In this document: piece after piece, positions 34,354 to 46,500 of the stretch
Layout: every line of letters starts with the position of its first letter
Position numbering within the stretch: position 1 is the stretch's first letter
Assembly (NCBI GenBank): GCA_963695095.1
Contig: CAVOFT010000001.1
Location: forward strand, 864,001 to 928,000
Length of the DNA stretch: 64,000 bases
Direction of reading: 5' to 3'
Source of the DNA: an uncultured bacterium
Lineage (GTDB): Bacteria > Krumholzibacteriota > Krumholzibacteriia > JACNKJ01
The notes under the pieces: model-generated
What the model saw: only the letters and a program-made list of their open reading frames with translations
Databases searched by the model: none
What the model was told of the DNA's origin: nothing
Program-made: the position numbers and the translations under genes

Positions 34354-36717
34354 ATGGCCATCGACCAGACCAAGCTCAACTTCCGGCTGGAGACCCCGCT
34401 GGGGGAGAACGCGCTCGTCGTCTCCCGCTTCGAGCTGAGCGAGGGGATCTCGCAGCTCTATCGCTGCCGGCTGGAGCTGGTCTCCACGGACCTGGCGGTG
34501 GACTTCAAGGCGATTCTGGGCAAGGCGGCCCTGCTCACGATCGCGCCGCCCGGCGGCAGTCAGCGCCATCTGCACGGCATCGTCACCCGTTTCGCGCAGC
34601 AACCGCCGGAGGGCAACTACGCGCGCTACGAGGCGGACATCAGGCCCACGCTCTGGATCCTCGCGCAGCGCCGCAACAGCCGCATCTTCCAGGAGCAGAC
34701 GGTGCCGGCGATCGTGCAGACCCTGCTCGGCGAGGCCAGCATCAAGGCCATCGACAACAAGATCCAGGGCAAGCACCCCGAGCGCGGCTACTGCGTGCAG
34801 TACCAGGAGAGTGACTTCGCCTTCGCCTCCCGGCTGATGGAGGAAGAGGGCATCTACTACTACTTCCGCCACAGCCCCGAGGACGGCCACGTGCTGGTGC
34901 TCGCCGACGGCAGCGACTTCGTCGCCTGCCCGGGTGTCGCCGAGGCCGCCTACAGCCCGGGCCAGGAGCAGGCCGTGGGGCGGGAAACCCTGCACCGCTT
35001 CCAGCGCGAGCAGCGCCTGCTGACCGCCCGCTACGTGGTGGACGACTTCAACTTCGTCGATCCCAAGACGGACCTGACGGCCGAGGCCACGGCGTCTCTG
35101 CCCCAGGACCTGCCCGGAGGTACCTTCGAGCACTTCGACTACCCCACGGGCCAGGTGAAGCAGGGCGCCGAGACCGAGGGCAAGATGGCCTTCGGCGAGG
35201 ACCTCGCTCTCCTCAGGGCGGATGCCGCGCGCGCGGCGGCCTTCACCTTTGCGGGCGAGAGCGACATCGCCGGTCTGCTGGCCGGCCACAAGGTGAAGAT
35301 CGCCGGCTGCCCGCGGCCCGACTTCGACGGCGAGTACCTGCTCACCGGGCTGGACAGCACGGGCGATCAGGCGGAGGGCCTCGGCGAGTCCGGCGGCCGC
35401 GGCGGCGCGCCCGCTCACCTCGGCAACAAGTTCCGCTGCCTGCCGCTCAAGGAGGTGCCGGTCTTTCGGCCTGCCGCTTCGACGCCCTTGCCGCGCATGC
35501 CCGGGCCGCAGACGGCTCTGGTAGTGGGTCCCGCCGGCGAGGAGATCCACACGGATCAGTACGGGCGGGTCAAGGTGCAATTCCACTGGGACCGCTACGG
35601 TCAGGCCGACGACAAGAGCTCCTGCTGGCTGCGCGTCTCGCAGAGCTGGGCCGGCAATCTGTGGGGGGCCTTCGTGCTGCCGCGCATCGGCATGGAAGTG
35701 GTGGTGGACTTCCTCGACGGCGATCCCGACCGGCCGCTGGTGACCGGCGCCGTCTACAACGCGATGACGATGCCGCCCTACCCGCTGCCGGACAAGGCCA
35801 CGCAGAGCGTCTTCAAGAGCCAGTCCAGCAAGGGCGGCGGCGGCACCAACGAGATCCGTCTCGAGGATAGAAAAGGCCAGGAGCAGATCTTCCTGAACGC
35901 GCAGCTGGACTACGACTTCCAGACCGGCCACGACCGCCGCGAGCAGGTGGGCAACGACCTGCACCTCACCGTCAAGAACGACCGTTTCGAGCAAGCGGAC
36001 AACAACGCCCACGAGACGATCGGCGCCGATCTGCGCCAGCAGATCGGCAAGGATCGGCACCTGAGCGTGGGCGGCAAGCAAAGCGTGGCGATCGGCGAGA
36101 GCAGCTCGCTGGAACTGGGCAGCGACCTGATCGAGAAGATCGGCGGCGACAGCTCGCGCGGGGTGGGCGGCAACATCCTCATCGACGGCGGCGGGGACAT
36201 CGTCATCGAGGCGGCCACCAGCATCACCCTGGTTTGCGGCTCGAGCAGTTGCGTCATCGACGCCTCGGGCGTGACCCTCAAGGGCTCCATCCTCACCCTC
36301 GACGGCAGCATGACGAACATCAACAGCGGACCGGGCTCCTCGCCGACCTCGCTCTCGCCGGGCAGCCTCGTCGCCCCCACGGCCCCCGACGCCCCGGTGG
36401 CGCCCGAGGCGGCCCAGCCGGGCGAGAACGTCGCAGCGCCGCCCGCCCACAAGCCGCCCAAGACCGTGGAGGACGTGGCGGAGGGCAGCGAGGCGCCGCC
36501 GGAACAGGAGCCGCCGGACTGGATCGAGCTCGAGATGGTGAACGAAGAGGGCGAGCCGGCGGCCGGCGAGCGCTACAAGATCGAGCTGCCCGACGGCAGC
36601 GTGGCCGAGGGCACGCTGGACCAGAAGGGCTACGCACGCGTGGAGGGCATCAAGCCGGGGAGCTGCAAGGTCAGCTTCCCGAACCTCGACAAGAAGAACT
36701 GGGACAAGGGGAGCTAG
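34354..36717 (+). CDS. vgrG: T6SS spike VgrG with Pro-rich linker and C-terminal transthyretin-like (TTR) domain
   Basis: YCVQY.ESD..F..RL.EEEGI.Y, GPQTA.VVGP.GEEI.TD.YGRVKVQFHWDR, PRIG.EV.V.FLDGDPDRP, gp5 repeats. C-terminal WIELEM..E.GEP.AG..Y.I.LPDG....G.LD..G.A. Confidence 0.96.
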   Translation: MAIDQTKLNFRLETPLGENALVVSRFELSEGISQLYRCRLELVSTDLAVDFKAILGKAALLTIAPPGGSQRHLHGIVTRFAQQPPEGNYARYEADIRPTLWILAQRRNSRIFQEQTVPAIVQTLLGEASIKAIDNKIQGKHPERGYCVQYQESDFAFASRLMEEEGIYYYFRHSPEDGHVLVLADGSDFVACPGVAEAAYSPGQEQAVGRETLHRFQREQRLLTARYVVDDFNFVDPKTDLTAEATASLPQDLPGGTFEHFDYPTGQVKQGAETEGKMAFGEDLALLRADAARAAAFTFAGESDIAGLLAGHKVKIAGCPRPDFDGEYLLTGLDSTGDQAEGLGESGGRGGAPAHLGNKFRCLPLKEVPVFRPAASTPLPRMPGPQTALVVGPAGEEIHTDQYGRVKVQFHWDRYGQADDKSSCWLRVSQSWAGNLWGAFVLPRIGMEVVVDFLDGDPDRPLVTGAVYNAMTMPPYPLPDKATQSVFKSQSSKGGGGTNEIRLEDRKGQEQIFLNAQLDYDFQTGHDRREQVGNDLHLTVKNDRFEQADNNAHETIGADLRQQIGKDRHLSVGGKQSVAIGESSSLELGSDLIEKIGGDSSRGVGGNILIDGGGDIVIEAATSITLVCGSSSCVIDASGVTLKGSILTLDGSMTNINSGPGSSPTSLSPGSLVAPTAPDAPVAPEAAQPGENVAAPPAHKPPKTVEDVAEGSEAPPEQEPPDWIELEMVNEEGEPAAGERYKIELPDGSVAEGTLDQKGYARVEGIKPGSCKVSFPNLDKKNWDKGS

Positions 36718-36757
36718 GCGGTCGCTCCGCCGCCCGCGACGCTAGGAACGAGGACGC

Positions 36758-38623
36758 ATGCCACGACGATTCAGGGCCAAGAGCGGCGACACCCTGTGCA
36801 CCCTCGCCATCCGCGAGGGGGGCTTCACGGATTGCGGGCAGGTCCGCGCCGCCGCCGCCAACGCTGCGCTCAAGGACGCGCAGGTCAAGGCGGGCCAGTT
36901 CGTGACGGTGCCGGACAAGGAGGTCAAGGCCGAAGAGGGGGCCGCCAAGCAGAAGCACAAGTTCAAGAGCACCAAGGGCACGCCGCCCTACGTGCGCTTC
37001 GTGCACGGCTCGGAGAAGAAGGACTGGAAGGACGACTTCTCGCTGAAGGTGCTCCAGATCAGCAACATCCGCACGGACATGGGCGGGCTCGACACCACCG
37101 CCGCCTTTCCCGGCACCTTCGGCTTCGACGACGACGCGCACGTGGACGAGGACAGCTTCAAGATCGAGGTCCGCGACGCCGACGAGGCCGGCAACACGCT
37201 GAAGGTGCAGCTCGAAGCGCTGAAGCGGGAAGTCGCGGCCGACAAGACCGTGAGCTTCGTGCCCTTCGCGGCCGGCGACCCCGACGCCGACAAGCGCAAG
37301 GTGGAGATCGAGTGCGAGCGCGTTGCCGCGGACAAGAAGCTCTTCCGCTCGCGCTACCTGCGCCTGGTCACCGATGTCGACGACTTCGCGGCCGCGCCCG
37401 GGCAGACCCTGCTCGTCGCCGACATCGCCGACGGCAGCGGCGGCGCCGCCGACGCGGTGGAGATCCTCGATCAGGAAGTGCGCGCGAGTTACGCGCTGCC
37501 CAAGTGCGCGAAGAAGGGCGACGCCAAGGCGGCCTGCGTGGTCAGAGCACAGCTGCCGGTGGGGGGCAGTTCGTCGCAGCGGCGTGTGCGGCTAGCCGTG
37601 CACGTGCTGCGCAAGAGTCGCGACGGCGCGGGCGCGGCCACCCTGCCCGCCACGCGGTCGGCCTGCCTGCGCTACATCCGGCGGCTCTACGCCCAGGCCG
37701 AGCTGGGCTTCAAGTTCGTCGACCACGAGATCCGCCTGGTGCAGCCGCCGGCGAATCTGATCGCCGTCGACGACCGCGAGGGACGCAAGGCGACCGGCGG
37801 CAGCGCCATCGAGTTGCGCATCCGCGTCAACCCCGACAGCGAAGGCAACGACACGACCAAGGACGTGAGCATCACCACGCGCGCCAAGGACACGCCGGCC
37901 GCCACCGCCAAACGCCTGGCGGACCGCATCACCTCGAACTTCGGCAAGCTGGTCCGGGTCAGCACCAGCAGCAATCCGCCCATCATCGGCAAGGCCCGCG
38001 GCTCTGCTGACGTGATCGTGGGCGATCCCCTCGTCCAGGAAGTCACCATCACCGTTCTCACGAACGACGACGCCACGCAGCCGGTCACCGTCGGCCGCGT
38101 GCTCGCCGGGCGCATCCAGGAGTTCGGCGGCGACGATTCGCACGTGGGCACGCTGGAGGAGCGCACCCTGGTCAAGAACTACGACACCGGCACGAACCGC
38201 GTGGATCTCTTCGTCGTCGAGGGCTTCAATCCCGCCCCCGGTTCCGCCGGCGAGGCCTTCACGCCCAACAAGAAGGCCAAGGCCGCCCGGCGGCCGCGCA
38301 GCCCGATGGTGAACTCGGTGATCATCTTCCAGACGGGCACGGCCGATCCGCCCCAGTTCCACACGACGATTCCGCACGAGATCGGCCATGTCCTCATGGA
38401 CCATTCGCACATCGAGAGCGCCTACGGCGTGGCCGCCAACGCCGGGCACGAGATGATGGGCGCCGGCTCGCCGGTGGGGGCCACGGAGACGGTGGTGGGC
38501 GGTCCCAAGCGCATCGCGGATCCCCGCAACAAGGCCCTGAACGCCACCTTCTCCACCGCGCCGCCGGGCAATCCGCGCACCTTCCTCCGCACCCGTAACC
38601 AGGGGCTGCTCGATGGCTGGTAG
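36758..38623 (+). CDS. Candidate T6SS effector: N-terminal LysM-like segment and C-terminal HExxH zinc-metallopeptidase domain
   Basis: No signal peptide; directly after vgrG. 'KSGDTLC.LA...G...........N..L....V..GQ.V.VP' at the N-terminus. TIPHEIGHVLMDHSH at ~38375, followed by a Met-turn-like HEMMG. Confidence 0.65.
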   Translation: MPRRFRAKSGDTLCTLAIREGGFTDCGQVRAAAANAALKDAQVKAGQFVTVPDKEVKAEEGAAKQKHKFKSTKGTPPYVRFVHGSEKKDWKDDFSLKVLQISNIRTDMGGLDTTAAFPGTFGFDDDAHVDEDSFKIEVRDADEAGNTLKVQLEALKREVAADKTVSFVPFAAGDPDADKRKVEIECERVAADKKLFRSRYLRLVTDVDDFAAAPGQTLLVADIADGSGGAADAVEILDQEVRASYALPKCAKKGDAKAACVVRAQLPVGGSSSQRRVRLAVHVLRKSRDGAGAATLPATRSACLRYIRRLYAQAELGFKFVDHEIRLVQPPANLIAVDDREGRKATGGSAIELRIRVNPDSEGNDTTKDVSITTRAKDTPAATAKRLADRITSNFGKLVRVSTSSNPPIIGKARGSADVIVGDPLVQEVTITVLTNDDATQPVTVGRVLAGRIQEFGGDDSHVGTLEERTLVKNYDTGTNRVDLFVVEGFNPAPGSAGEAFTPNKKAKAARRPRSPMVNSVIIFQTGTADPPQFHTTIPHEIGHVLMDHSHIESAYGVAANAGHEMMGAGSPVGATETVVGGPKRIADPRNKALNATFSTAPPGNPRTFLRTRNQGLLDGW

Positions 38624-39728
38624 TCCACGTCGCAGCCTGCTGCTGAGCCTGATGCTGGCGGCCGCCCTGCTCGGGGCGGCCTGCCGAGAGAAAGAGAAGA
38701 CCATGGCACACGAGACGGACACGCAGGGCGCCGCGCGCATCGATCCGCGCATCGAGGCCTACCTCAAGGTGGAGACGAAATACCACATCGCGCCGCCGCC
38801 CACCGGGCTGGCCAAGGCCACGGTCGAGGCGGCGCTGGAGGCGCGCGTGACGCCGGCGGCCGGCCCGGCCACGCTCAAGCAACTCGCCGCGCTCGCCCTC
38901 TACTACGATGCGCGTGCGGCCGCGCCGGCCTTCGCCGGCCTGCTCAGCGGTCGCGAGGAGAGCCCGGCCGACCAGCAGCGCGCGGCGACGGCCCTGGTTG
39001 CCCTGGGCTGGCTGGCCGCTGACGCCGAGGCGCGCGAGCGCGCGCAGAGCGCCTTCGCGGGCCTGCTCGAGCGCGCGCGGACGGCCGAGCCGCGGGCTGT
39101 CCTGCTGCCGGCCTGCGACGCCCTCAGTCCAGGCGCGGCCCTCGCCGCCTACCAGCGCTGGCTGGGCGCGCGCATCGGCGAGCTGGACGACGCCATTGCC
39201 GCCGCGAAGAAGCAGGGCAAGGAGCTGCGCGACGAGCAGCTCCTGCGCGACGCCTGTCAGGAGTTCCTGGCGGGTCCCGTCAAGCGCCTGGCGGCAGCCA
39301 CGGCGAAGCGCCAGGAGCTGAACGGGCTGGCCGATGACGCCGCGCGCATCGGGCCCCTGGCCGAGCTCTATCTGGGCGACATCACCGAGCTGAACCAGTG
39401 GGCCGGCTACCGGCTCATCCAGCTCGCGGGGCGGGATGCCGATCTCCGCAAGGCCGCCGCGGCCGCCTTCCTCGCGCTGGCCGAGAAGCTGCCCGTGCCG
39501 CCGCCCGAAGCGGCCGCTTCCGAGGCCGACGACGCGGACGCGCCCGCAGACGAGGACGAGGACGAGGCCGAGGGCGATCGCCGCGAGGCGGCCCTGCGCC
39601 TGGCCCGCTGCCTGCGCGCCGCGCAGTTCTTCGGCGCCGCGCTCGGCGAGGAGCAGGCCGACTGGCTGAAGGGCGAAGGGGACACCGGCACGGACCTGCT
39701 CGCCCTGCGGCCTGACTGGCAGTACTAG
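38613..39728 (+). CDS. Helical lipoprotein, candidate immunity protein
   Basis: Lipobox LGAAC. Its start overlaps the end of the candidate effector. Ala-rich helical sequence with an acidic patch. Confidence 0.55.
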   Translation: MAGSPRRSLLLSLMLAAALLGAACREKEKTMAHETDTQGAARIDPRIEAYLKVETKYHIAPPPTGLAKATVEAALEARVTPAAGPATLKQLAALALYYDARAAAPAFAGLLSGREESPADQQRAATALVALGWLAADAEARERAQSAFAGLLERARTAEPRAVLLPACDALSPGAALAAYQRWLGARIGELDDAIAAAKKQGKELRDEQLLRDACQEFLAGPVKRLAAATAKRQELNGLADDAARIGPLAELYLGDITELNQWAGYRLIQLAGRDADLRKAAAAAFLALAEKLPVPPPEAAASEADDADAPADEDEDEAEGDRREAALRLARCLRAAQFFGAALGEEQADWLKGEGDTGTDLLALRPDWQY

Positions 39729-39808
39729 CCTTGGTCCGTCAAGGGCATGCGCACAAGCGGCTCCTCGTCCGCCAGGGCGGAAGCTTGACGGATCTCGATT
39801 TGCGTCCA

Positions 39809-40855
39809 TCAGCCCGTGTTCGGCAAGCCCGCTGCCGGCGGGGCCGCTACCGGCAGGGCGGCGGCAAGTCCCACGCCGCTTTCGTGCAGCAGTCGGTGGC
39901 AGGCCGCGCAGAGGGTGATCAGGTTCGCCGCGCTGTTGCGGCCGCCACGCCGGCGCGGCTCGCGGTGGTGCACCTCCAGGAAGCGCGTGGACCGGCAGCC
40001 CGGCGCCTGGCAGCGGTGGCCATCACGCGCGAGCACCTGCCGTCGAAGAGACGGCGGAATCGATGCCCGGTTCGGCGCGCCTTCCCGCTGCGTTCGGCAG
40101 TCGCAGGCCGCCTGCGCGGCCACGGCCGGCGCCAGGGGGCGCCTGTCGGGCAGGCGCGCGGCGCCGCACTCCTCGCAGCGGTAGATCACGACCTGATACG
40201 GCACCTCGCTTTGTACACGTGTACACTCGGCCTCGGCCAGCGCCGCGAAGGCAGCCAGCAGCAGCTCCTCTTTCGTCCCGGTCTGCCCTTGCTTGCGCAG
40301 GCGCTCGACGATGGCCAGCCAGCGGGCGTGCTGCTCGGGCTCGAGCGTGAAGCTGACCTGCACCTTTGGCGCCGGTGCGGGGACCGGCGCGGGGGCGGGG
40401 ATGGGCCCAGGGGCAGGCGCCAGCAAGTCGCCCTGGCCGCGATCGCGCCGCGCTTCGCCGCGGCTCTCGCGGATCCGTGCTTCTAGCTGACGAGCGCTGC
40501 TCGCCTTCGCGAGGGCGATCCACTGGCCCTCGGAGCGCGGCGTGGCGACCGCCGCCACGCTGCGGGCCTTGGTCCAGGGCATCTCGCCGGCCTCGACCGA
40601 GGCTCGCAGCTGCGGCAAGCCATCGAGCGACTCGGCGAGCCGGATGAACTGATAGGTCTTCGCCTGCCCGAAGCCCAGCACGGCCTCGGCGTAGGCATGA
40701 ATGCTGGAGTAGCCGCGGTCGCGATAGAGGCGCCGGCGCATCAGCTCGGCGAACCAGAGCACGGCGCTCTGTTCGGCGCGGCGCAAGGCGGCGACGGCCG
40801 CGCGCAGGCTAGCATCCACCGTGGCGGCGGGCAGATTCGGCACGAACTCGGACAT
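39809..40855 (-). CDS. HNH endonuclease with DUF222-like N-terminal helical domain
   Basis: RRRLY...GYSSI..YA...LG N-terminus and C..C zinc knuckle. IPPSLRRQVLARDGHRCQAPGC.....LEVHH......GG.N...NL.TLC..CH...HE. Confidence 0.9.
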   Translation of the reverse strand: MSEFVPNLPAATVDASLRAAVAALRRAEQSAVLWFAELMRRRLYRDRGYSSIHAYAEAVLGFGQAKTYQFIRLAESLDGLPQLRASVEAGEMPWTKARSVAAVATPRSEGQWIALAKASSARQLEARIRESRGEARRDRGQGDLLAPAPGPIPAPAPVPAPAPKVQVSFTLEPEQHARWLAIVERLRKQGQTGTKEELLLAAFAALAEAECTRVQSEVPYQVVIYRCEECGAARLPDRRPLAPAVAAQAACDCRTQREGAPNRASIPPSLRRQVLARDGHRCQAPGCRSTRFLEVHHREPRRRGGRNSAANLITLCAACHRLLHESGVGLAAALPVAAPPAAGLPNTG

Positions 40856-40903
40856 GGAGAGACCTCGCCAGAACGAGGTCGCGGGAGGCGGGGAGAGGCC
40901 AGT

Positions 40904-40932
40904 ATTATACTATGGACCCGAGCGAAAGTCAA
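40904..40932 (-). promoter_or_regulatory. Near-consensus sigma70 promoter of the HNH gene
   Basis: Minus strand TTGACT(40932-27)-17 bp-TATAAT(40909-04). Confidence 0.8.
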
Positions 40933-41050
40933 GCTCATCGCTAATAGAAGAGCCATCGCCGCTGCATCGCGACAGGGCGTCTGGGCGGAGCAGAGGCGCT
41001 GCCTGTGCGCCTGTCTTGTGGCGGACCAAGGCTAGCCGTGCCCGCCCCGC

Positions 41051-42080
41051 TCAGCCGAGGGCGATGGCCAGGCGCGCGATCAGCGCATCGGGGCGGCCGG
41101 CCACGGGCAACCAGTCCCGCCACACCAGCGCGAGCTTGCCCTCATCGGGCAGGAGCACCAGCGTGTCCAGCTTGAAGGCCAGGGGCTGCGGCGCGCCGTC
41201 GCCCGCCGTGCCCTCGCCGGCGAGGCGCTCCCACTCGCCCGCGAGCTTGACCCCCGGCAGCGAGAAGCTGAGTTCGCCCTCCGGCGTCAAGCGCTTGAGC
41301 AGGACCTCCTCGTCCCCGCGCAGGTAGCCAGGCAGCTGCAGGTCCGGGTGGGCCGCGTTGTGGAAGTCCGGCTTGAAATCCAGCGGGGGCAACGGGCGCG
41401 CGCTCCTTCTGCCAGCGCTCGTCGTGAGTGCCCAGGTACTTCACACGGGGAAACCAGCCGCGCCCGTAGGTGCCGAAGCCCTGCGGCACCGGCCGGCTCT
41501 GCCAGCCCTTGATCAGCTGCTGCGGGTCTTCGAGATTCGGGGCCAGCGCCCCGTTCACGGACTGCTTGCGCTTCTTCCTGAAGTAGCCGCGCCCGATCGG
41601 GTTGCGCTCGCAGTAGCCGCCGCCCACCGTGTCGATGCCCCCGTAGGCGCGCTCGTAGACCAGCGGCATCGTGGCGAAGGGCGCGGGCGGGCCCAGGCGC
41701 GCGGACGCGAAGCGGCCGCCGCACTTCCAGCGCCGGTCGCCGAACACGCGGATGGCCTTGGCGAGCCGCCCCACCTGCAGCGAGACCTCCAGGGCCGAGG
41801 CCTGCGTGCCCGGCGGCGCGTAGGCGCTGCCGTTGAGGATCACGTCCGCCCGCGGCTTGAAAGGCGCCAGGTCGGACTCGAAGCGCAGGCTGCCGCCCTG
41901 CTTCTCGTCGATGAACTCGTCGCCGTAGCAGATGGGCAGCTGCTCGCCCGCGACCTGCGCGGCGCTGCCGGGCACGACCTGGAAGGTTCCCTTCACGATT
42001 ACCGTGAGGCCCTCGGCGCCATCCGGTCCGCGGCCGGGCACGAGGGCGATCTCGAAGGGCGTCTCGTTCTCCAGCTTCAT
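41051..42080 (-). CDS. DUF2169 T6SS effector adaptor; frameshift near 41395
   Basis: N.TPF, IVKGTF, ESD.APFKPRADV...G.AYAP, .PL.YERAYGG, NPIGRG, P.GFG.....W.PR....GT.D..W...R.P..P.DF....NAAH, LDTL........LVWR. Confidence 0.9.
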
Positions 42081-42105
42081 CGCGGGCCTCCCGAGCGCCT
42101 GCGCA

Positions 42106-42937
42106 TCATTTGAGCACCCCCGGCATGGGGATCACGGAACCCATCACCACCGGCCCCACCGGCACGAAGGGCGGCACGAAGGTGGGGATGGGCCCCATGC
42201 CGAGCACGCCCGTCACCATCGTGCTCGCCTTGAAGGTCTGGAAGACCGTGCCGAAGGCCTTGGCCAGGCACTCGAAGAGCATGGCCGCGTGGGCGGCCTC
42301 GGGGTCACCCAGGTTCCCCTCCATCTGCTTGGCGAGCGCGCTGGGCGAGAGCATGCGATTCGCCGGGCGAGCTGAGCGTGACCAGTGGCACGGGGACGTT
42401 CGGCGTCGGCGGGGCCATCGGCCCCGGGAAGGCGGCGAAGGCCGGGTACATGAGCTGGCCCATGAGCCCGGTCTGCCAGGTCTGCCAGGCCGTGCCGAAA
42501 GCGTTGGCGATGGCGTTCGTGTACTTCATCTCCATCGGGGTGGCCATCGGCGAGCCGGCGAGGATGAGCGGCGCCAGCGGCGGTCCCACCACACCGCCGG
42601 GGGTGAGCATGCCCACGGGGCCGTTGATGATCACGGTCGTGATCATCGTCATCTTCATCCAGTTGTCGATGCCGCCGCAGATGCCCTTGCTGACGCCGTC
42701 GATGTAGGCCTCGAGCAGGTCGGAGATGTCCTTGGCCGCGTCGACGTGGTACTTGTTCAGGCTCACTTCGCGCAGCAGGTTGGTGGGTGCGTTGGGCAGC
42801 GCGATCTGCTCGCTGGGGGCGAAGGCGTCGTCGAACTGGTCGCTGGGCTCCTCGTAGCCCTCCTGCAATTCCTTTTGCTTGGCGGCAAAGAGGGTCTTCG
42901 TCTGCTGGGCCAGGAGGCTGGCTTGCGGCGCGGGCAT
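42106..42937 (-). CDS. Conserved-looking hypothetical Pro/Gly/Met-rich T6SS-associated protein; frameshift near 42355
   Basis: ORFs 42305..42937 and 42106..42354 join into one coherent ~277-aa product (YPAFAAFPGPMAPPTPNVP; GPIPTFVPPFVPVGPVV). It lies between PAAR and DUF2169. Confidence 0.7.
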
Positions 42938-42973
42938 CCTTCTCCTTCGCCCTTCCGGCGGCGGCCGGCGGGT

Positions 42974-43291
42974 CTAGCCGACCATCACGTCCGAGCTGCC
43001 CTCGATGAGGGTGCCCACGCCGCCGCAGTGCTTGGCCATGTCGCCCAGCCGATAGGCGCCCATGCCGTTGATCATCACGGTGACGCTGCCCAGCAGGGCC
43101 TCCCAGGTGTTCGGCCCGCAGCAGGCGGTGTGGATGCCCTGGTCGCCCACGCGCAGGGCGGGCCGGCCGTTGACGAGCACGTCCGGCGAGCCGCAGACGG
43201 CCGGGCCGATGACCGGATGCGGACAGGCCGGGCAGCCGTGCACATCGATCGGCGCCATCGAGCGGTCGCCGAGGCGGCCTTGAGGGGGCAT
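42974..43291 (-). CDS. PAAR-domain spike tip protein (stand-alone, 105 aa)
   Basis: MPPQGRLGD, HGCPACPH, GSPDVLVNGRPALRVGD, V.ING..AYRLGD...HCGG.G....GS.DV.VG. ATG at 43291 with GGAGG RBS. Confidence 0.92.
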   Translation of the reverse strand: MPPQGRLGDRSMAPIDVHGCPACPHPVIGPAVCGSPDVLVNGRPALRVGDQGIHTACCGPNTWEALLGSVTVMINGMGAYRLGDMAKHCGGVGTLIEGSSDVMVG

Positions 43292-43433
43292 AGGAACCTC
43301 CGCGGGCGGGGCAGCCGGCGCCCTCGCCGGCCCGGACAGCCTAGCACAGCCGCCGCCGGGAACGCCAGCGGTGGCAGCAGCTAAGCGCGAGGAAGCAAAG
43401 CAGATGCCCGGCTCGGCAAAGCCGCCTTGTCGC

Positions 43434-43462
43434 TTGACTCCCCGCGGTCTCGGTTCTAGGGT
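43434..43462 (+). promoter_or_regulatory. Putative sigma70 promoter
   Basis: TTGACT(43434-39)-17 bp-TAGGGT(43457-62), upstream of the ATG at 43535. Confidence 0.45.
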
Positions 43463-43534
43463 GGTGGGGCGCGCGCACCCGATGCGCGGCGCCAGCGGCT
43501 CGGTCACGAGCCCGACCCTCGGGGAGGAGCGGAC

Positions 43535-46500
43535 ATGCACGAAGTGATGCAGCGCCTGGCCGTCGCCGGTCTGGCGGCCCTCGTCGTCGCGAGCCTGGCC
43601 CCGGGCCTCTGCGCCCAGCCGGAGTACCTCAGCGACCCCTCGCAGTTCATTTATCAGGCGGCGGTCGTCGATTTCGAGACCTTTCCCGACGGCAACACGG
43701 TGCCCTATTCCGACCCCAGCTTGACCGACCAGTGGAGCCAGGTGGGCTTCCTGATCGCCGACAGCTCGCCGAGCACCGGCGCCATGGCGATCAGCAACAC
43801 GTCGGCGCGATCTTCCCGCACAGCGGCACGCGCGGCCTGACCGACGGCCCCAGCAACCTGGGCGGCTTCCATCCGCTTCGACTTCGTGGACCAGCGCACG
43901 GGCCAGCCCACCGTGGTCTGGGAGACCGGCATCTGGGTGCAGAACGGCGACGCGGCCTCGACCGTGGCCTTCTACGACGGGAGCGGCGGCACGCTGGGCA
44001 GCTTCACCACCGCCGGCGCCGACGACTTCATCGGTCTGCGCGACCGCGAGGGCATCGCCGCCATCGAGATCAGCGACGGCGGCCAGTACATGGTGGACGA
44101 CCTCACCTTCTCACCCCGCTTCGCCGACGACAAGCTCTGGTCGCCGTTCAGCGCGGCCCAAGGCCTAAGCTCTTTCGTGCGCGAGTTGGAGGTCTATGAA
44201 GACCAGCTCTTCGTGGGCGGGGCATTTGCGAGCGCTGGCGGGGTAGCCGGCACAGCCCGTCTTGCTAGCTGGAACGGCGGATCCTGGAGCGGGCTGGGCA
44301 CCCAGCCCGACAACACGGTCTGGGCGATGACCGTCTGGGACGGCAAGCTCGTGGTCGGCGGCGAGTTCTCCAACTTGGGCAGCCGCGTCGCCGCCTGGAA
44401 CGGCACGGGTTGGGAGACCCTTGGCGCTGGTTTCAATGGCGTGGTCTACGATCTGCTCGTTTGGAACGACCAGCTCTACGCCTGCGGTGCATTCACGCTG
44501 TCGGGCGGCGCCGACGTGCGCTATGTAGGCCGCTGGAACGGTTCGGCCTGGGAGGGCCTGGGCACGCAGATTCCGACCGCTGTCTACGCCTTCGCAATGG
44601 CGGTGTATGAGAACCAGCTCATCGTCTGCGGCTTCCTCCCCTCGGCGCCCTTCGACCGCGACCTTGTCGCCTGGGATGGGAGCGCCTGGACGACCTTCCA
44701 GGGAGGGGGCAACGGCGAGATCGATGCCGTCTGCGTGTGGAACGGCGACCTCTATGTCGGCGGTGTTTTTTCTGAGATCGGCAATCCGCCGGTGGCTGCG
44801 CAGGGCATCGCGCGCTGGGACGGCGAGACCTGGGCACAGGTCGGCGAGAGCCTCGGCGGCAACTATGTCATGAAGCTCCAACCCTATGACGGCGCCCTGC
44901 TCGCCGTGGGTCGCTTCAGCGGTCCGACTGTCGATCCCTTCGGCGAGATCAACGGCATCGGGCTCTGGGATGGCGTCAGCGGTGCCTGGCGCCCCCTGGG
45001 CAGTGGATCCCCTTCAACCAAGACATCTGGGATGCACAGGCGTATCAGGGCGCCCTCTACGTGGGCGGCGAGTTCAACACCATCGGCGGCCAGTCCGACG
45101 TCGGCTACCTGGCGCGCTGGGACGGCCCGGTGGAGTTCCCGGTGGTGACGCTGCCCACTGCCGTGGCGCCGGTCGGACAGCCCTTCACCTTCCGAGTGAA
45201 CGCCAGCGACAACTACGATGTGCAGTCGGTCACCCTGCACTACCGCCGCGGCGGCCAGCCCAACTTCAGCGCGGTCGACTTGGCGCCGGAGGCCGGGCGG
45301 GACGGCACCTACAGCGCCCAGCTCGCGCCCGCGCTGATCACCACGAGCGGCCTGGAGTACTTCGTGGAAGTCTCCGACGGCGCCTTCACCACCGTGGCGC
45401 CGGCCACGGCGCCGGTGATTCCGGGCTTCCTCGCCACCAGCTTCAGCGCCAGCCTGGCCGCGCCGACGGCGAACGAGTACGTGCTGTTCGGCTTTCCCTT
45501 CCGGCCGACGGGCAGCCCGGCCCAGGTCATCGAGGACGACCTGGGCGCCTACAATCCCGCCAGCTGGCGCCTGGGCCGCTATCAGCCGACAGGCACCAGC
45601 ACCGGCAGCTATCGCGAGTACCCGAACGTCGGCGCCTACCCGAATCCCGACGGCAGCTTCCAGCCCGGAAACGGCTACTGGCTGATCCAGAAGGAGCCCA
45701 AGGTCGTGGATGCCGGCGCGACGGCCACGAGCACCGCCGCCGGCGTCACGCTGCGCCTGACCTCGGGCTGGTCGATGATCGCGACGCCCTACATGTTCCC
45801 GGTGCGCTGGAGCGACGTCGGCCTCGATCCCGGCATCGAGAACCAGCTCTGGGGCCTGGTGGCCGGCAGCGCGCCCGACTACGCCTATCAACTGCGGACG
45901 CGCATGGAGCCCTGGCAGGCCTACTGGGTGCACAACGCCTCGGCTTCGCCCCAGTTCATCAACATCCCCGGCATCGACGCGACGGCCTTCGCGGCCCGGC
46001 CGGCGCCGGCGCCCGACCACGTCTGGGCCCTGCGCCTGCGGCCCGCGGGCAGCGAGGGCCACGGCGCCCTCGCCGCGGTGAACGCGCAGGGTAGCAGCGG
46101 GCTGGACGCCTTCGATGCGCACTGCCCGCCGGCGATGCCCGGCGCTCCCTCGCTCTCCTTCCTGCTGGAAGCGGACGGCGAGGAGCAGGAGCTGGCGATC
46201 GACACGCGCGGCGACTTCACGGCCACGGGCGGCGCCCTGTGGACGCTGGGCGTCAGCGGCCGCGCGGGCGGCGAGCATCTCGTGCTGGCCGTCGAGGGCC
46301 TCGAGTCGCTGCCGCCGGAGCTGGCGGCTCAGCTCATCGGCCCCAGCGGTCTGCGCGTGGACCTGCGCGCCACGCCCGCGCCGCGCCTGCCGCTCGATGC
46401 GGCGGGCCGCACGCGGGTAACCCTGGCCGTGGGTACGGCGGCCTTCGTCGAGCAGGCCGCCGACGATCAGGCGGCGGCCGCGACGGGCACCCACCTGGCG

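Follow-up and report, generated by a model that had tools for sequence, protein, structure and literature searches.

The stretch of DNA analysed in this study, called the window below, comprises 64,000 nucleotides (nt) from the genome of an uncultured bacterium (G000:C1:864001-928000). That genome, G000, has 3.64 Mb in 2 contigs and a G+C content of 70%. Window positions 39725-41035 are one copy of a discrete, multicopy, mobile element, which has imperfect terminal inverted repeats of ~55 bp, is inserted at CTAG, has its own promoter and carries one gene that is under purifying selection. The gene encodes an HNH protein of 348 amino acids and contains a 14-bp parS-like palindrome that is strongly constrained and remains perfect even in dead copies. 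The features of the element, in window positions, are as follows.

39725..39728, left copy of the CTAG target; the TAG inside it is the stop codon of an upstream 371-amino-acid open reading frame (ORF)
39729..39780, left terminal inverted repeat, on the 3' side of the gene, with tip CCTTGGTCCG and inner box GCGCACAAGCGGC
39809..40855, minus strand, the sole ORF, 348 amino acids, with a predicted ParB-type helix-turn-helix (HTH), a two-helix region, a zinc ribbon and an HNH nuclease
39878..40183, minus strand, zinc ribbon and HNH beta-beta-alpha-metal domain, codons 225-326
40212..40225, perfect 14-bp palindrome TGTACACGTGTACA with a CACGTG core, in the coding linker, codons C211-Q215
40472..40789, minus strand, all-helical DNA-binding domain with a predicted ParB/Spo0J/Noc/KorB fold, codons 23-128 (structural alignment, Foldseek, PF17762)
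40904..40932, minus strand, the element's sigma-70-type promoter, TTGACT-17-TATAAT
40978..41031, right terminal inverted repeat, on the promoter side, with tip CGGACCAAGG
41032..41035, right copy of the CTAG target

Ends, gene and promoter

The sequence CTAGCCTTGGTCCG at 39725-39738 recurs as its exact reverse complement, CGGACCAAGGCTAG, at 41022-41035. A preliminary description of the locus had reported this perfect 14-bp inverted repeat and its imperfect extension to ~55 bp, and both hold: a gapped global alignment of the ~56-nt arms gave 45 matches over 56/58 nt. Since 9 of 300 mononucleotide shuffles yielded a perfect 14-bp inverted repeat at the same spacing, the 14-bp repeat alone is weak evidence. 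The inverted repeat nevertheless goes beyond chance, because five other full copies in G000 share both ends, with similarity ending at the tips. The left-arm motifs CCTTGGTCCG and GCGCACAAGCGGC are both conserved among other copies. The flanks are likewise as first described, with the left CTAG supplying the TAG stop of the 371-amino-acid ORF (38613-39728) and 15 nt (41036-41050) separating the right CTAG from the stop codon, 41051-41053, of a C-terminal DUF2169 fragment.

The only cargo is the HNH protein. Within 39725-41035, the single sizeable ORF with a family match is 39809-40855 on the minus strand, and its product matches Pfam HNH (PF01844) at E 5.5e-10 over residues 281-325, which is the HNH domain expected of the DUF222-HNH family. 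Pfam scans of this sole ORF matched HNH families only and revealed neither a DDE transposase nor an HUH Y1 transposase domain. No RNA family was matched in an Rfam scan of 39500-41300 at E<=1. The long ORF is kept in all six full copies in G000, and the ratio of nonsynonymous to synonymous substitution rates (dN/dS) lies between 0.14 and 0.26 in 15/15 copy pairs, indicating purifying selection. The promoter agrees with 11 of 12 consensus positions, whereas sites of this quality averaged 0.0 over 50 shuffles. Its region is conserved among the other element copies.

Copies, target sites and empty sites

A search of G000 by nhmmer with default filters, using a profile built from the long copies (1287 model positions), gave 29 matches. 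Six full copies span model positions 3-1285 of 1287: copy A, which is the one in the window, and copies B (3012661), C (859446), D (1108177), E (3082426) and F (3193855). Three further copies are partial or divergent (G, 2974803; H, 1078378; I, 377197), and there are 11 short remnants. The element is thus a dispersed, multicopy repeat of about 1.3-1.4 kb. When the G000 copies were aligned, similarity started and stopped at the repeat tips, CCTTGRTCCG, and the flanks were unrelated. Nucleotide identity to copy A ranged from 84 to 93%. Every copy carries the HNH gene or remains of it, and the tip scan and nhmmer search of G000 showed no short element that has both ends but lacks the gene. In the class as a whole, protein matches occurred in 37 of 41 genomes, often as several copies per genome, with copy number varying widely. 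HNH copies with the same ends at CTAG sites were found in G000 and in relatives, and the checks that the preliminary description had proposed for a discrete selfish element all came out in its favour. In a plasmid search for relatives of the protein, only the HNH domain was matched, covering 16-21% of the protein. Among the listed sequencing runs, the share of sampled words was 0.11 at most, and none was an RNA run.

The bases adjoining the element were tallied by eye at 13 independent loci of the studied subfamily, with orthologs merged, giving 20 resolved ends. Exact CTAG adjoins 12 of these. CTAG is a rare sequence in G000, with 1854 sites in 3.64 Mb versus 9851 expected from base composition. 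An ortholog of copy B on a metagenome contig (L082) has CTAG at both sides. Elements of the genus g3 (L055 and L062; genomes G004 and G009), whose proteins are 47-50% identical to the one studied, are also bounded by CTAG on either side, and the right tip GCGGACCAAG is common to both of them and to the studied element.

Empty sites were found for two insertions. A 1.3-kb copy in G001:C41 lies between CTAG and CTAA, and G000 has the same flanks with a single CTAG at 2658282-2658293. Copy C of G000 lies between CTAG and CTGG, and G002:C2 has the same flanks with a single CTAG, which forms the stop codon of the upstream gene. The duplicated bases may be TA or all four of CTAG, both being compatible with the sequence. 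In such empty sites the CTAG is usually a stop codon. The preliminary description had proposed a search for an empty allele; empty alleles exist for these two insertions, but for copy A itself none was found. A whole-locus DNA search of G001 and G002, with 40 of 824 and 632 candidates scored, gave element matches only, which is a weak negative, and an ortholog of the flanking 371-amino-acid protein was present in 0/11 other genomes of the family and on no contig in the metagenome scan. No empty site was found for copy F, the locus being rearranged in G001 and G002, or for copy B, where G002 holds 1.5 kb of other sequence.

Several loci differ between genomes in ways that go beyond presence and absence. 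At locus D, G000 and G001 share the flanks and the two CTAGs that enclose the element, which has opposite orientations in the two genomes. The G001:C41 copy lacks ~70 nt of the left repeat at the gene 3' end, and CTAA still directly adjoins it. A copy in G001:C64 is missing its promoter end and the first ~25 codons, and CTAG still adjoins it; the same CTAG is unoccupied in G000. A tree of a 478-column shared region placed G000 copies A, B and C together, at 91-95% identity to each other, and the G001 copies at the orthologous B and C loci with G001:C41. Those G001 copies are only 75-78% identical to their G000 counterparts, compared with 85-88% for the flanks of the two loci. Being less alike than their flanks and clustering by genome, the copies have been homogenised within a genome or replaced in place; the element copies evolve in concert. 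The promoter-side end of copy E (G000:C1:3082426-3082470) forms a tip-to-tip palindrome, CCTTGATCCGT TTG ACGGACCAAGG, in which an inverted tip copy precedes the right tip.

No helper transposase was found for the element, which, as the preliminary description had it, carries no transposase of its own. Neither PF01609 (IS4/IS5) nor PF13358 (IS630) matched anything in G000; the same searches were positive in control genomes (9/14 and 5/14, respectively). Among G001, G004, G009, G010 and G011, PF13358 was absent, and PF01609 matched only in G001 (6 matches) and G004 (2 matches), on contigs without element ends, with none in G009, G010 and G011. Six DDE-bearing stretches of G001 and G004 had no CCTTGRTCCG tip at their ends and no similarity to each other. 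The tip 12-mer, allowing up to 1 mismatch, occurs in G000 at the element ends and in ~11 isolated near-matches without element similarity. In a search of 72,556 plasmids, the element ends did not match any insertion sequence (IS) ends. The G000 tip scan, the DDE contigs of G001 and G004 and the plasmid search thus yielded no autonomous partner with matching ends; such a partner may have been lost from these genomes. G000 also contains an IS91-like repeat and an IS256-like element in 3 copies that are 99.8-99.9% identical. The IS256-like copies, of 1.32 kb, lie at G000:C1:674524-675841, 1013532-1014854 and 2297488-2298811 and encode a 420-amino-acid protein that, judged from its translation, looks like an IS256-type transposase.

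The protein and its palindrome

An alignment of 59 homologs shows residues C282, C287, H296, H297, N311, C316, C319, H320 and H324 to be invariant. The AlphaFold model built from this alignment has a mean predicted local distance difference test score (pLDDT) of 86.4 and a predicted template-modelling score (pTM) of 0.67. In the model, residues 258-339 resemble McrA (6ghc_B, Z 7.7) and the HNH domains of IscB (Z 6.8-7.0; 9nvu_P, Z 7.0), and the sequence of the HNH part matches an IscB chain (9k2z_A, E 1e-12) and McrA (E 5.6e-9). Residues 23-128 were aligned by VIA-align with Spo0J/ParB (1vz0_A; Z 7.7, root mean square deviation 2.7, 91 residues), with ParB on parS (6s6h_B, Z 7.2), with KorB (Z 6.1-6.2) and with SopB (Z 3.8), and Foldseek matched them to Noc on its site (6y93_A; prob 1.00, TMt 0.71, E 0.14). 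These scores are middling; several ParB-family chains top the list for the domain. At the sequence level, PF17762 (HTH_ParB) matched 25 of the 59 homologs at E<=0.1, all weakly (best, 6.7e-4), and in a six-frame scan of G000 with PF17762 the HNH protein of copy H came second after the real ParB, at E 0.0033, a match that falls short of the cut-off.

The protein had initially been called DUF222-like. This stands in a remote sense, in that 15 of the 59 aligned homologs match DUF222 (PF02720) at E<=0.1 (best, 3e-6), and PF02720 is precomputed on 8 of 120 homologs among the matches listed. The protein itself, however, has no PF02720 match at E<=10, and on the evidence of the model a ParB-type HTH is the more fitting description of its N-terminal domain. 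The structure prediction proposed in the preliminary description accordingly points to a DNA-binding fold of the ParB/Noc/KorB type. The ParB CTPase (cytidine triphosphatase; ParB/Srx) domain is absent from the Pfam scan at E<=10, which contains HNH families only, and the fold matches to ParB chains begin at their DNA-binding domains.

The palindrome TGTACACGTGTACA falls in the low-confidence linker of the protein model. Its central CG is within the codon of R213, an arginine with a conservation of 90% or more across the family. Of the 33 perfect copies in G000, 8 belong to near-full elements and 12 to remnants, and the other 13 are solo; near-matches are few (2 with one mismatch, 4 with up to two). 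In the remnants, the 60 nt around the palindrome are only 28-49/60 identical to the reference copy, and the palindrome is perfect in all of them. The palindrome region is kept in 10 of the 11 nhmmer remnants, with deletion end points that are all different, and several remnants join it directly to an element end with CTAG. Copies C and G and two of the remnants each have a tandem duplication of a 27-bp unit that contains the palindrome. Across the 41 genomes, TGTACACGTGTACA occurs 33 times in G000, 28 in G001, 32 in G004 and 26 in G009, 2-5 times in three others and not at all in 34, and its reversed control is absent from all 41. Elements of the genus g3 each have two such palindromes, one in the linker and the other ~15 nt inward from the left CTAG.

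Other subfamilies have different palindromes at the same linker position, as seen at 12 of the 16 loci examined. Copy H carries CGACTTGTCACGTGACAAGTCG, which is repeated 199 nt upstream of its gene, copy I carries one of the CCCGCCCCCGGGGGCGGG type, and further subfamilies have GTCCACCCGGGTGGAC, TGAAGAGTGCACCCGGGTGCACTCTTCA and AAAGTCTCCCCGGGGAGACTTT. Of the 41 genomes, five contain 15-24 copies of GTSCACCCGGGTGSAC and one contains 4; another has a single nonpalindromic match, and 34 have none. The subfamily palindromes are also scattered between genes, and the same palindromes lie inside or beside HNH genes. Solo palindromes fall outside crude gene calls in 27 of 29 cases, those calls covering 80% of G000. 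One solo site, at G000 2950904, is perfect in all three species of the genus, with diverged surroundings; G002 has only 2 such sites. Palindromes with a CACGTG or CCCGGG core co-occur with HNH genes and are putative cognate sites. Both cores resemble the consensus sequences of parS and the Noc site (NBS). Of the 42 palindromes outside near-full copies, 19 have a CTAG no more than 60 nt away, versus a random mean of 2.5; this proximity is confounded by adjacency to stop codons and is not used here as support.

Two host functions for TGTACACGTGTACA were considered and rejected. Read as GTAC-N4-GTAC, it might be a LexA/SOS box, but there is no such site upstream of lexA (1627131), and 33 of the 35 GTAC-N4-GTAC sites in G000 are the exact palindrome, unlike a regulon motif. 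It is not the host parS either, the canonical ParB and GTTTCACGTGAAAC-type sites being located elsewhere, at 149.8-151.9 kb. The canonical parB is at G000:C1:149801-150091 (PF17762, E 1.6e-34), with parS-like sites at 151327 and 151851.

Some further properties of the scattered palindromes were noted. Solo palindromes of different types occur in pairs 10-13 nt apart at G000:C1:233772-233809, 772921-772961, 2950904-2950943 and 3281982-3282021. The same pairing occurs in G004, G009 and G011, where the starts are 28-47 nt apart, and the 27-bp tandem unit of the linker has a similar period. A solo TGTACACGTGTACA at G000:C1:928008 lies 8 bases past the end of the window, ~115 nt upstream of a crude gene start. 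The commonest palindromic 14-mer in G000 is CGCCCCCGGGGGCG, with 94 copies versus 24 for the next GC-rich one; the linker of copy I contains this motif, and all seven elements of a sister subfamily in G002 have it twice at the promoter-side end. The solo palindromes at G000:C1:252009, 3329193, 2950930 and 1092321 are each the centre of a much longer perfect hairpin, for example ccagggacTTGCCACGTGGCAAgtccctgg, located just past a gene stop. The palindrome TTGCCACGTGGCAA has 11 copies in G000, and no HNH gene of G000 carries it.

Mobility, alternative explanations and known systems

We infer that the ParB-HTH/HNH protein is probably, if by no means certainly, the mobility enzyme of the element, binding the palindrome as a dimer and cutting at the tips and CTAG, with the host joining the ends. 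In such a scheme, the protein, probably dimeric, would bind its cognate palindrome via the ParB-type HTH, and the HNH domain would cut the CTAGs beside the repeat tips and a CTAG at the target. With ends that are palindromic and compatible, host ligation or repair could join the element in either orientation, leaving CTAG on both sides, and rejoining after excision would restore a single CTAG. The same breaks could also cause gene conversion or replacement between copies. The element would then be HNH driven, either cut-and-join or homing-like, and would operate without a DDE, HUH, serine or tyrosine recombinase. A cut-and-join model of this kind would account for CTAG on both sides, insertion in either orientation, the inversion at locus D and the truncated copies that abut CTAG.

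A number of points weigh against this model. We know of no HNH-only transposition mechanism. Full-text literature searches, subscription journals and supplements excepted, listed no paper on HNH-only transposition, or on elements of this kind that have inverted repeats, insert at CTAG or encode a ParB-type HTH. The proposed catalysis by the HNH domain at the element ends and CTAG is something that we infer from sequence. The structural matches behind the assigned fold have Z values below 8 and Foldseek E values above 1e-3, and the PF17762 matches are below the Pfam cut-off. Exact CTAG is missing from 8 of the 20 resolved ends: four are one base off (CCAG, CTGG twice and CTAA), and the last four are CCCG, CCGG, TCAG and TCAA. 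The element itself contains two CTAGs, at 40483 and 40809, so CTAG alone cannot be the cleavage signal and context must matter. Recombination between the inverted repeats may explain the inversion at locus D, and the truncated ends may have arisen by later deletion. At 84-93% identity, none of the G000 copies moved very recently, and copies of such age make the absence of a DDE transposase today compatible with a lost helper. Finally, the sister subfamily in G002 (7 copies, 44% protein identity) lacks both CTAG and these inverted repeats, so the CTAG mechanism is not general for the family; its elements have GC-rich hairpin ends, and the corresponding empty sites in G000 are untidy.

The lost helper would be a DDE transposase that once acted in trans on a non-autonomous IS5/IS630-type element, with the HNH gene as a passenger. 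IS630 and some IS5 groups typically insert at CTAG and duplicate TA or CTAG, the age of the G000 copies allows for such a loss, and DDE_Tnp_1 genes are present in G001 (6 matches) and G004 (2), one of them ~600 bp from an HNH-element fragment on G001:C379. We consider this unlikely, however. PF01609 and PF13358 are missing from G000, PF13358 from the 5 other carriers and PF01609 from G009, G010 and G011, the 6 DDE contigs are without the CCTTGRTCCG tip, and the ends matched no IS ends in 72,556 plasmids. A passenger gene would not be expected to be under purifying selection in all copies, nor to occur in 37 of 41 genomes. All copies retain the HNH gene or its remains, and no short element with both ends was seen without it. 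A nuclease that is active but does not transpose presents a different case. Breaks at CTAG or the palindrome might be followed by host repair, DNA capture and gene conversion that spread copies, the tidy ends being a by-product. Truncated copies adjoin CTAG, positional orthologs are replaced in the course of concerted evolution and remnants are centred on the palindrome, all of which this would explain, and the accessible text of two papers describes REP13E12 loci as among the most recombined in Mycobacterium tuberculosis (PMC13061034, PMC13157036). It is rather unlikely all the same, given that six copies agree at both ends except for a few bases and that the tips are conserved across genera, which points to defined donor ends and not to random capture.

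Two further explanations were considered. The ParB-HTH/HNH proteins and the extragenic palindromes might be a domesticated host family that serves in regulation, defence or recombination control, with its transposon-like appearance a relic. The solo palindrome at G000 2950904, perfect in three species between diverged flanks, would suit a host function, as would the location of 27 of 29 solo palindromes outside crude genes and the purifying selection on the protein; yet presence or absence at CTAG is polymorphic between sister species, many copies are decayed and copy number is variable, all of which fit a selfish element and make domestication very unlikely. The preliminary description had itself raised the alternative that the two ends are independent repeats, similar to repetitive extragenic palindromic (REP) sequences, flanking an ordinary HNH gene. 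Shuffling does produce a perfect 14-bp inverted repeat in 9 of 300 cases, but the ends accompany the HNH gene in 6/6 full copies and elsewhere occur as isolated near-matches only, so that the copy alignment, the tip scan and the nhmmer results refute this idea, which we regard as practically untenable.

If the HNH protein is the mobility enzyme, as we prefer to read the evidence, it would add a new chemistry to the few transposition mechanisms, and a class of extragenic palindromes would be explained. More broadly, and tentatively, the element may belong to an undescribed class of prokaryotic mobile element, although we would not yet count on it. The sole enzyme of this class would be an HNH nuclease steered by a ParB-type HTH, and each subfamily would have its own parS-like palindrome at a fixed place in the coding sequence, seeding or maintaining perfect solo copies between genes, as an HNH counterpart of REP sequences and their RAYT transposases. 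The studied subfamily would insert at CTAG by restriction-like cutting and rejoining, and the same activity would explain why DUF222-HNH (REP13E12) loci are hot spots of conversion and inversion in mycobacteria. The locus provides the DUF222-HNH family with a testable anatomy, comprising ends, a four-base target, empty sites, a promoter, a ParB-type head and a candidate recognition palindrome.

The closest known relative is the REP13E12, or 13E12, repeat family (DUF222-HNH) of M. tuberculosis. DUF222-HNH genes are very numerous in bacterial genomes, and the REP13E12 repeats are said to have been described originally by Gordon et al. in 1999. Like the element, REP13E12 is a dispersed ~1.3-kb repeat encoding an N-terminal helical domain (DUF222 in REP13E12) and a C-terminal HNH domain. 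The element differs in that its protein has no DUF222 match of its own and in that its host belongs to an uncultured lineage and is not an actinobacterium. Both are prone to recombination: conversion and inversion are reported for REP13E12 in the accessible parts of recent papers (PMC13061034, PMC13157036), and the element copies evolve in concert, with one inverted. In those parts, the 2026 papers state that REP13E12 repeats "lack defined biological function" and place them where gene conversion and large inversions are most frequent (PMC13061034, PMC13157036), and, together with the available text of an additional paper, they describe enrichment for gene conversion, inversion breakpoints and induction by DNA damage (PMC10589994, PMC13061034, PMC13157036). 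Inverted-repeat ends, CTAG duplication, empty sites, a ParB-type HTH and an internal palindrome do not appear in the accessible portions of these REP13E12 accounts (PMC10589994, PMC13061034, PMC13157036). In the accessible part of an article on HNH enzymes, DUF222 figures solely as an accessory domain of some of them, and small zinc-ribbon HNH enzymes are shown to be site-specific nickases (PMC3592412).

In its terminal inverted repeats and CTAG/TA target duplication, the element is like the IS630/Tc1 and IS5 groups. Members of these groups have terminal inverted repeats and insert at CTAG with an apparent duplication of TA or CTAG. Unlike them, the element has no DDE transposase, and PF13358 and PF01609 have no match in G000. 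Free-standing HNH homing endonuclease genes of phages, which take part in intronless homing, are likewise lone selfish HNH genes that stimulate recombination nearby. Homing involves homologous alleles and one long site, whereas the element copies lie at unrelated loci that share only CTAG and have defined inverted-repeat ends. The best HNH match in both sequence and fold is IscB (OMEGA, IS200/IS605), and NF040563 matches residues 270-327 at E 2.2e-13. That match reaches 50 bits versus a cut-off of 175 and is confined to the HNH part; the element protein lacks RuvC, and there is no Rfam RNA in 39500-41300.

With ParB/Spo0J, Noc and KorB, the protein is predicted to share the fold of the DNA-binding domain, and the palindromes look cognate. 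In spo0J, parS lies inside the gene itself, and the palindrome of the element is similarly inside the gene of its own protein. The element protein differs from ParB, Noc and KorB in having no detected CTPase domain and in the fusion of its HTH to a nuclease. REP sequences are linked to RAYT transposases (HUH Y1), and the resemblance here is in the scattered, perfectly kept extragenic palindromes, sometimes clustered, that are tied to one nuclease family carrying the same palindrome. The enzyme of the element is of the HNH type with a ParB-type HTH and not HUH Y1, the palindromes number tens of copies and not hundreds, and the palindrome is in coding sequence. ParB-CTPase-HNH fusions use another ParB domain, as described in the accessible text of one report (PMC12704722), and are in this respect unlike the element protein.

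Four of the seven G002-type HNH elements (L040, L042, L043 and L044) lie directly after the stops of genes whose products have a conserved sorting-type domain at the C terminus. These four elements bring a terminator-like hairpin, GCCCGGCGACCCCGTGTCGCCGGGCTTTTT, for the upstream gene.

The surroundings of copy A, window positions 34354-43540, are a type VI secretion cargo region, in which the element is placed between the 371-amino-acid ORF and DUF2169. The region contains a VgrG-like ORF (34354-36717), a 621-amino-acid ORF with a HEIGH motif and no Pfam match (36758-38623), the 371-amino-acid ORF, also without a Pfam match, and a gene for a PAAR protein (42974-43540). The DUF2169 gene is present in two overlapping frames of the minus strand, 41142-42080 (profile positions 1-223) and 41051-41392 (profile positions 209-294). 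Judged by its reading frames, this split gene (41051-42080) is a frameshift, a pseudogene or an assembly error. Elsewhere in G000, a 16-kb stretch at C1:3039191-3055513 is repeated at C2:12682-28947, either as a duplication or as an assembly artefact.

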